From the NCBI RefSeq assembly GCF_965641715.1, contig NZ_OZ282453.1: 64,000 bases of DNA. One strand, given 5' to 3'. Position 1 is the stretch's first letter, and each line of letters begins with the position of its first letter. This document shows positions 17,865 to 17,952 of the stretch, in pieces. Position numbers and translations under genes: made by a program. This stretch comes from Escherichia coli. GTDB taxonomy: Bacteria > Pseudomonadota > Gammaproteobacteria > Enterobacterales > Enterobacteriaceae. The notes under the pieces are model-generated. The model saw only the letters and a list, made by a program, of their open reading frames with translations, had not been told where the DNA came from and ran no database searches.

Positions 17865-17891
17865 CTTTTTTAAATTGCCCCTAGATGAATG

Positions 17892-17924
17892 CACGGGCGG
17901 AGAGGAAATTCCCCTTCGCCCGTG
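17892..17924 (-). other. dnaK-dnaJ intergenic stem-loop
   Basis: Inverted repeat cacgggcg ... cgcccgtg in the 88-bp dnaK-dnaJ spacer; region once annotated as sRNA tpke11 in K-12, more likely an mRNA structure. Confidence 0.4.
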
Positions 17925-17952
17925 TCAGTATAATTACCCGTTTATAGGGCGA

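Follow-up and report, generated by a model that had tools for sequence, protein, structure and literature searches.

Leaky intrinsic terminators inside operons tune the ratio of upstream to downstream product, as in Rend-seq work on operon stoichiometry, and intercistronic hairpins can shield the upstream mRNA from 3' exonucleases, e.g. the REP elements in malE-malF and the stem-loops of the Bacillus subtilis dnaK operon. The stem-loop that we analyzed, which lies between dnaK and dnaJ in Escherichia coli, shares features with both. It resembles the leaky intra-operon terminators in being a G+C-rich hairpin between co-transcribed genes, with an RNA 3' end mapped in vivo, a ∼3-fold drop in RNA and independence of Rho, but it differs from them in having a poor U tract (4/8) and in failing the consensus scan. 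It resembles the protective intercistronic hairpins in that a stable stem-loop ends the commoner upstream cistron and the main transcript carries dnaK only. However, it does not belong to the REP elements: there is one copy of it in the window (i.e. the whole 64,000-nucleotide stretch of DNA that was analyzed) and, unlike a dispersed repeat, it has an invariant sequence conserved at this locus. Our preferred reading, to which we give a probability of roughly 0.65, is that the hairpin is a cis-acting, Rho-independent leaky intrinsic terminator and subsequently a barrier to 3' exonucleases, lowering dnaJ relative to dnaK.

The window is collinear with positions 11500-16000 of the MG1655 chromosome at 99.13% identity (39 substitutions over 4.5 kb), and published coordinates were converted using window = 32032 - MG1655. 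The features of the locus are as follows:

17953-19869, minus strand: dnaK, from the ORF list and the sequence.
16734-17864, minus strand: dnaJ, with its ATG start at 17864.
17953..17955, minus strand: UAA stop codon of dnaK, from the ORF list and the sequence (dnaK is annotated in E. coli genomes).
17862..17864, minus strand: ATG start codon of dnaJ (MAKQDYYE...), from the sequence.
17865..17952, minus strand: the dnaK-dnaJ spacer, 88 nt, identical to MG1655 14080-14167.
17865..17876, minus strand: A/U-rich tract AAUUUAAAAAAG before the dnaJ start, from the sequence; polymorphic within E. coli.

The mechanical ORF list puts the dnaJ start at GTG 17894 (minus strand), inside the hairpin, giving a product of 386 aa; this is an artefact of the longest-ORF rule, and the real start is ATG 17864 (376 aa). 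A copy of IS186 lies at ∼15301-16644 (minus strand), starting 89 nt past the dnaJ stop, a location that it shares with IS186A of K-12. Of 5426 complete E. coli genomes, 5424 contained a 501-nt piece that surrounds the hairpin, many of them with 100% identity, and the hairpin spacer sequence occupied one place per genome in these 5424.

A reading made from the letters alone had noted an inverted repeat at 17892-17924 in the 88-bp spacer and had claimed that it forms a stable stem-loop. The arms are where they were said to be (cacgggcg at 17892-17899 and cgcccgtg at 17917-17924), and a repeat finder extends them to 16 nt each (17892-17907 and 17909-17924, 88% complementary and 1 nt apart). RNA folding, which had been suggested as a check, gave -32.7 kcal/mol for the sense strand of the spacer compared with -19.4 +/- 3.1 kcal/mol for 200 dinucleotide shuffles (z = -4.3, with 0/200 shuffles folding as well), i.e. 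the predicted stable structure on which the claim depended was found. The hairpin by itself folds at -24.6 kcal/mol and consists of an 8-bp outer stem, an A.C mismatch, a 6-bp inner stem and an AUU loop:

17917..17924, minus strand: hairpin 5' arm CACGGGCG (spacer nt 29-36), from the fold and the repeat finder; its core is invariant.
17901..17915, minus strand: inner stem AGGGGA/UCCUCU with the AUU loop (spacer nt 38-52), from the fold and covariation.
17892..17899, minus strand: hairpin 3' arm CGCCCGUG (spacer nt 54-61), from the fold, the repeat finder and covariation.

By chance the window should contain the motif CGGGCG..CGCCCG 0.18 times; its sole palindromic instance there is the dnaK-dnaJ hairpin. 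A second match, at 22471-22509 (plus strand), is one-stranded and non-palindromic and is probably due to chance. Membership of the REP/BIME elements was rejected, as there is a single palindromic copy in 64 kb and one place per genome in the 5424 genomes.

The region was also said to have been annotated once as an sRNA, tpke11, in K-12. This proved accurate, since the spacer matches the Rfam model of that name above its threshold and tpke11 is without an entry in the present MG1655 RefSeq record, the feature table of which lists dnaK and dnaJ alone here:

17865..17942, minus strand: match to Rfam RF02031 (tpke11), full model 1-77 of 77, 69.6 bits (gathering 43), E = 2.2e-14.

The match lies in the dnaK-dnaJ spacer and is sense to the operon; the antisense strand scores 22.1 bits vs 69.6 for the sense strand. 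The label tpke11 (G0-8893) is also used for the region in the annotation of Adams et al. 2021 (PMC7815308). RF02031 passed its threshold in all 13 of the 13 free-living Enterobacterales tested (45-78 bits), the relatives including Yersinia, Serratia, Photorhabdus, Hafnia, Pectobacterium, Pantoea and others. The element in the window shares locus, strand and structure with tpke11 and does not differ from it in sequence, although the label "sRNA gene" is doubtful, the evidence fitting a cis-acting part of the operon mRNA. The stem-loop is therefore not new: it is the long-known, highly conserved tpke11 hairpin. The hairpins of Vibrionaceae and Shewanella are related to it, yet lie beyond the reach of the RF02031 model. 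Weak matches to sX6 (RF02225, a Xanthomonas sRNA; 20-26 bits, gathering 40) span the dnaK 3' end and the spacer in three relatives (L006:979-1190, L013:1048-1192 and L025:930-1190). A link to sX6 was dropped, as these matches are sub-threshold, the window contains none and no paper connecting sX6 with dnaK was found.

We used a scan for DnaJ to assemble a comparative set of 80 gammaproteobacterial loci, in 79 of which dnaK lies directly upstream. The spacers of these 79 dnaK-dnaJ loci range in length from 56 to 269 nt, and every one of them (79/79) contains a strong single hairpin, of -11.6 to -29.4 kcal/mol. The core CGGGCG...CGCCCG was found in 45 of the 47 Enterobacterales spacers, the two without an intact core belonging to reduced insect symbionts that have degenerate versions of it, and the same hairpin, including the inner GAGG-NNA-CUC, is present in Vibrionaceae, Shewanella and Aliidiomarina. 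The position of the element between the stop and start codons was fixed in every genome examined. Reduced Serratia symbiotica genomes have been reported to keep the element, of which Buchnera has a positional counterpart; the Serratia symbiotica paper lists its function as unknown.

Several relatives carry additional structure in the spacer. In Mangrovibacter yixingensis (L011:954-1200) the spacer is 247 nt long and holds a structured insert of ∼160 nt after the conserved hairpin, which could be a small mobile repeat. The spacers of Pseudoalteromonas (L057, L059, L062, L063, L069 and L079) and Alteromonas (L061 and L064) are 187-214 nt long and contain a different GC hairpin followed by UUUUGCAUGU, which resembles a canonical terminator, and one to three further strong hairpins; the GCAUGU that follows the Pseudoalteromonas/Alteromonas hairpin recurs in Enterobacterales as ACGCAUGUUAAGGG. 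Erwiniaceae, Yersiniaceae, Hafniaceae, Morganellaceae and others have a second hairpin, upstream of the conserved one (8-12 bp, ∼20-50 nt past the dnaK stop, in L018-L045, e.g. L023:1113-1137 and L025:1110-1138). The sequence of this second hairpin differs completely between genera while its pairing is kept, and E. coli and its close relatives (Enterobacteriaceae) lack it. Next to such a freely changing hairpin, the invariant core of the conserved one stands out.

Covariation was assessed in a hairpin-only alignment of 45 distinct hairpins, anchored at both ends. In this alignment 87.9% of cells were paired, 8 of the 14 pairs had changes on both sides, and the covariation score was reached by none of 500 shuffles; when the partner was slid by 1-3 columns as a control, pairing fell to 32-52%. 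The pairs that covary include those flanking the invariant core. Across species there are 40 distinct inner segments, all of which are predicted to pair (39 with 4-7 inner bp and one, from a reduced symbiont, with 1), and 22 of 57 loops are of the GNRA type on the sense strand. RNAalifold, applied to a MAFFT alignment of the whole spacer in which the inner stem is misaligned, returned the hairpin only, with one compensatory pair. Within E. coli, the spacer variants (L082-L084) comprise a G to A change at 17913, which turns an inner-stem G.U into A-U, an A to U change at 17910, which opens the loop-closing pair, and AATC for ATTT at 17872-17874, in the A-rich tract before dnaJ; the outer stem is untouched by them. 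The covariation, the pairing of the inner segments, the GNRA loops and the E. coli polymorphisms that spare the outer stem show selection acting on the hairpin as a sense-strand RNA.

The six central pairs of the hairpin never vary, the non-enteric rows having been picked by that motif so that invariance there is by construction. Within 43 Enterobacterales, 13 of the 14 outer-stem positions are invariant, whereas among third codon positions just 1 of 70 is invariant over the first 70 dnaJ codons and none of 13 where dnaK ends. The half-sites ACGGGCG/CGCCCGT are likewise invariant, as they might be if the palindrome worked at the DNA level, i.e. as a site for a dimeric DNA-binding protein or as a cruciform. 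However, the half-sites lie between 7 and 20 nt apart and what separates them is self-complementary, the G.U pairs and GNRA loops occur on the sense strand only, and an RNA 3' end adjoins the stem. The variable spacing and the RNA-type covariation led us to reject a DNA-binding palindrome, and a role at the DNA level is highly improbable. An antisense RNA was rejected as well: the plus-strand fold is as stable (-36.5 kcal/mol), as expected of a palindrome, but the Rfam scores (22 vs 70 bits), the GNRA loops, the G.U pairs and the 3' end all point to the sense strand. A perfect TATAAT next to the hairpin, at 17929-17934 (plus strand, antisense to dnaK), lacks a recognisable -35 and went uncalled in the promoter scan.

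An RNA 3' end close to the hairpin has already been published. Using Term-seq, Adams et al. 2021 (PMC7815308, supplementary files 1 and 3) mapped a 3' end at MG1655 position 14145 on the plus strand, in LB at OD 0.4:

17887 (= MG1655 14145), minus strand: published in vivo RNA 3' end ...CGCCCGUGCAUUC-3' (Adams et al. 2021, PMC7815308).

This end, which in the published context has ...CGCCCGTGCATTC up to it and ATCTAGGGGC beyond it (PMC7815308), lies 5 nt past the last stem pair and 23 nt ahead of the dnaJ start. Coverage over 800 nt upstream vs downstream was 1085 vs 351 without bicyclomycin and 1076 vs 435 with bicyclomycin (PMC7815308), i.e. there is a ∼3-fold drop at the 3' end that does not respond to bicyclomycin. 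The same study gives position 14145 a Rho score of 1.25 ("No") and an intrinsic terminator score of 4.33, where at least 3 is suggestive according to its authors. Inspection of RNA ends, the other check that had been proposed for the stem-loop, therefore revealed an end 5 nt past the stem rather than continuous read-through coverage lacking a 3' end.

Other published data also separate the two cistrons. Stead et al. 2011 (PMC3082872) found that the main dnaK band on northern blots is 2.1 kb long and contains dnaK only, and a 2025 TRIC-seq preprint illustrates with dnaK-dnaJ how RNA contacts can break off sharply from one coding region to the next. In Salmonella undergoing cytoplasmic Mg2+ starvation, dnaK RNA is ∼2.5-fold above the RNA of the spacer and dnaJ (PMC12077118). 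The suggestion of the sequence-only reading that the stem-loop may modulate dnaK/dnaJ stoichiometry agrees with the published 3' end, the ∼3-fold drop, the 2.1-kb dnaK-only band and the difference between dnaK and dnaJ mRNA in Salmonella; we regard such a role as well supported, not proven.

In the reading that we prefer, a large share of the operon transcripts would end 5 nt past the stem independently of Rho, with the G+C-rich stem and its poor U tract acting as a leaky intrinsic terminator. The hairpin would then block 3' exonucleases and so protect the end of the dnaK mRNA, dnaK-only mRNA would exceed dnaK-dnaJ mRNA by ∼3 to 1, and the read-through fraction would supply dnaJ. The small RNA once called tpke11 would be a by-product, i.e. 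the hairpin-protected 3' piece of the dnaK mRNA. Whereas the 3' end, the coverage drop and its insensitivity to bicyclomycin are published observations, we infer that the hairpin is the cause of the 3' end, that termination, not cleavage and trimming, produces this end, and that it sets the ratio of DnaK to DnaJ protein.

Compared with what is expected of an intrinsic terminator, the element has a G+C-rich stem-loop (8 + 6 bp, -24.6 kcal/mol) and, in the published data, a Rho-insensitive 3' end at +5, release by RNA polymerase alone being putative. As expected of a 3' stabiliser, the segment upstream of it is the commoner one in the published data (1085 vs 351 reads, and the 2.1-kb dnaK-only band). 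The tail CAUUCAUCU has 4 U in 8 nt, short of the at least 5 U in 8 used as the threshold for a U tract; the count refers to the 8-nt window UUCAUCUA, which starts 2 nt past the stem (the hairpin being extended by two pairs). A consensus promoter/terminator scan made no sense-strand call at the hairpin. The main weakness of the leaky-terminator reading is the poor U tract.

A 3' end 5 nt past the stem is equally expected from exonuclease trimming after a downstream cut. Were processing the only event, one dnaK-dnaJ RNA would be made, an endonuclease (most likely RNase E) would cut it in the A/U-rich stretch past the hairpin and 3' exonucleases would trim it to the stem, so that the dnaK part is stabilised and the dnaJ part decays faster. 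The poor U tract, the distance of just 5 nt between stem and 3' end, and the conserved, single-stranded GCAUGUUAA downstream of the hairpin are all consistent with this course of events. So are the rise of dnaK RNA in RNase E mutants (2.3-fold) and RNase III mutants and of dnaJ RNA in the RNase III mutant only (PMC3082872), as well as the finding in Salmonella that PhoP destabilises dnaJ mRNA but not dnaK mRNA, with the RNA of dnaK, spacer and dnaJ being equal in high Mg2+ (PMC12077118). According to the authors of this 2025 Salmonella study, a terminator-like sequence is absent; they put forward cleavage or an sRNA (PMC12077118). However, there is no mapped cleavage site at the spacer, the accessible part of the supplement to Gordon et al. 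2017 lists no RNase III site for it, the intrinsic terminator score is 4.33 (PMC7815308), and canonical-looking terminators are found at the same place in distant relatives. Because the U tract is poor, processing alone is nearly as likely as termination and we hold it to be a possible, if tentative, account of the 3' end; leaky termination is favoured because the terminator score is suggestive, the 3' end is insensitive to bicyclomycin and Pseudoalteromonas has canonical-looking terminators at the same place (a GC hairpin then UUUUG).

Alternatively, tpke11 could be an independent sRNA, made from the spacer, that pairs with the pgsA, prlC and yehU mRNAs or with the dnaKJ transcript itself. 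Its cataloguing as an sRNA in Rfam (RF02031), the reported in vitro gel-shift binding of an extended Tpke11 construct to three mRNAs and the PhoP-dependent change in tpke11 signal reported in Salmonella (PMC12077118) are in keeping with this. However, the consensus scan, the only promoter search made, called no promoter-like site on the sense strand in 17600-18200, the sole end to have been mapped, a 3' end, falls within the annotated sRNA, and tpke11 has been dropped from the current RefSeq record. In published work over-expression gave no phenotype in screens of biofilm, motility and fimbriae, and the attenuation of transposon mutants in Salmonella was explained by polarity on dnaJ. In all the genomes examined the element sits at a fixed place between the two codons, which also argues against an independent gene. 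Trans-acting sRNA activity is weakly supported, and we consider it improbable that tpke11 works in this way.

The hairpin is accompanied in the spacer by three short blocks:

17946..17950, minus strand: post-stop C block GCCCU (spacer nt 3-7), from pairing in the minimum free energy (MFE) fold; conserved in 41 distinct Enterobacterales spacers.
17936..17941, minus strand: G block ACGGGU (spacer nt 12-17), which nearly repeats the beginning of the 5' arm, from conserved alignment columns.
17877..17881, minus strand: G block GGGGC (spacer nt 72-76), Shine-Dalgarno-like, 13 nt ahead of the AUG; predicted partner of the post-stop block.

GCCCU has two complementary partners, the hairpin's 5' arm and the GGGGC block. 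Long-range helices that mask a downstream ribosome-binding site are a known means of translational coupling, e.g. in E. coli atpH-atpA and in the RNA phage MS2. The spacer resembles these systems in the complementarity between sequence where the upstream gene ends and the stretch ahead of the downstream start, but it differs from them in that the helix is predicted only, is without compensatory changes and is short in E. coli. By analogy, GCCCU might pair with GGGGC/AAGGGC before dnaJ and close the spacer, to be opened by ribosomes terminating on dnaK, with the result that dnaJ translation is coupled to that of dnaK and kept lower.

Such a closing helix is present in the MFE fold of E. coli and most relatives, and in Photorhabdus, Xenorhabdus, Hafnia and Arsenophonus it amounts to 12-15 bp and -15 to -21 kcal/mol, with z down to -5. 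Its 4-bp core is paired in 39-41 of the 41 distinct spacers, the GCCCU block is always 2 nt past the dnaK stop in the Enterobacterales spacers that have it, and the G block before dnaJ keeps a fixed distance to the hairpin and a variable one (6-17 nt) to the AUG. However, the variation in the helix is one-sided, with no pair changed on both sides, and in E. coli the helix is 5 bp long with z = -1.2. Two reduced symbionts (L048 and L049) have lost the post-stop block and kept the hairpin, L049 also keeping GGGGC, and SoET retains only AAGGA; both blocks are absent in Shewanella, and the conservation of the G block could simply reflect a ribosome-binding site. The flanking blocks are accessory to the hairpin. 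Gating of dnaJ translation by the closing helix is doubtful, and could coexist with a role of the hairpin at the 3' end.

A plain terminator does not account for the invariant 6-bp core beside covarying pairs. The spacer alternates C blocks (CGCCC, CGCCCG) with G blocks (ACGGG, CGGGCG, GGGGC), making several pairings possible. When the nascent RNA was folded from the stop codon, the post-stop CGCCC was paired with GGGCG of the 5' arm in the MFE structures of 12 of 12 species; this pairing persisted in about half of them once 40 nt of upstream dnaK were included, and the full hairpin is far more stable. The CGCCC/GGGCG blocks are all invariant and carry no covariation signal either way. The first C block falls within the footprint of a terminating ribosome, and because of this a ribosome-sensing switch can be envisaged, which would tie both read-through and dnaJ translation to the translation of dnaK; alternatively, the invariant core might bind a core factor that is kept in reduced symbionts. 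We regard these ideas as speculative and rather unlikely.

The analysis adds to what was known of tpke11 in tying the hairpin to a 3' end that was already published and had gone unremarked, in finding a hairpin in every gammaproteobacterial dnaK-dnaJ spacer examined, in extending the same hairpin sequence to Vibrionaceae and Shewanella, beyond the Rfam model, and in flagging the invariance of the core as unexplained. Few RNA features survive in shrinking symbiont genomes, and the hairpin is one of them. DnaK and its co-chaperone DnaJ are needed in unequal amounts from one operon, in a ratio that shifts under stress (PMC12077118), and this unequal output of DnaK and DnaJ has an obvious cis element in the hairpin.
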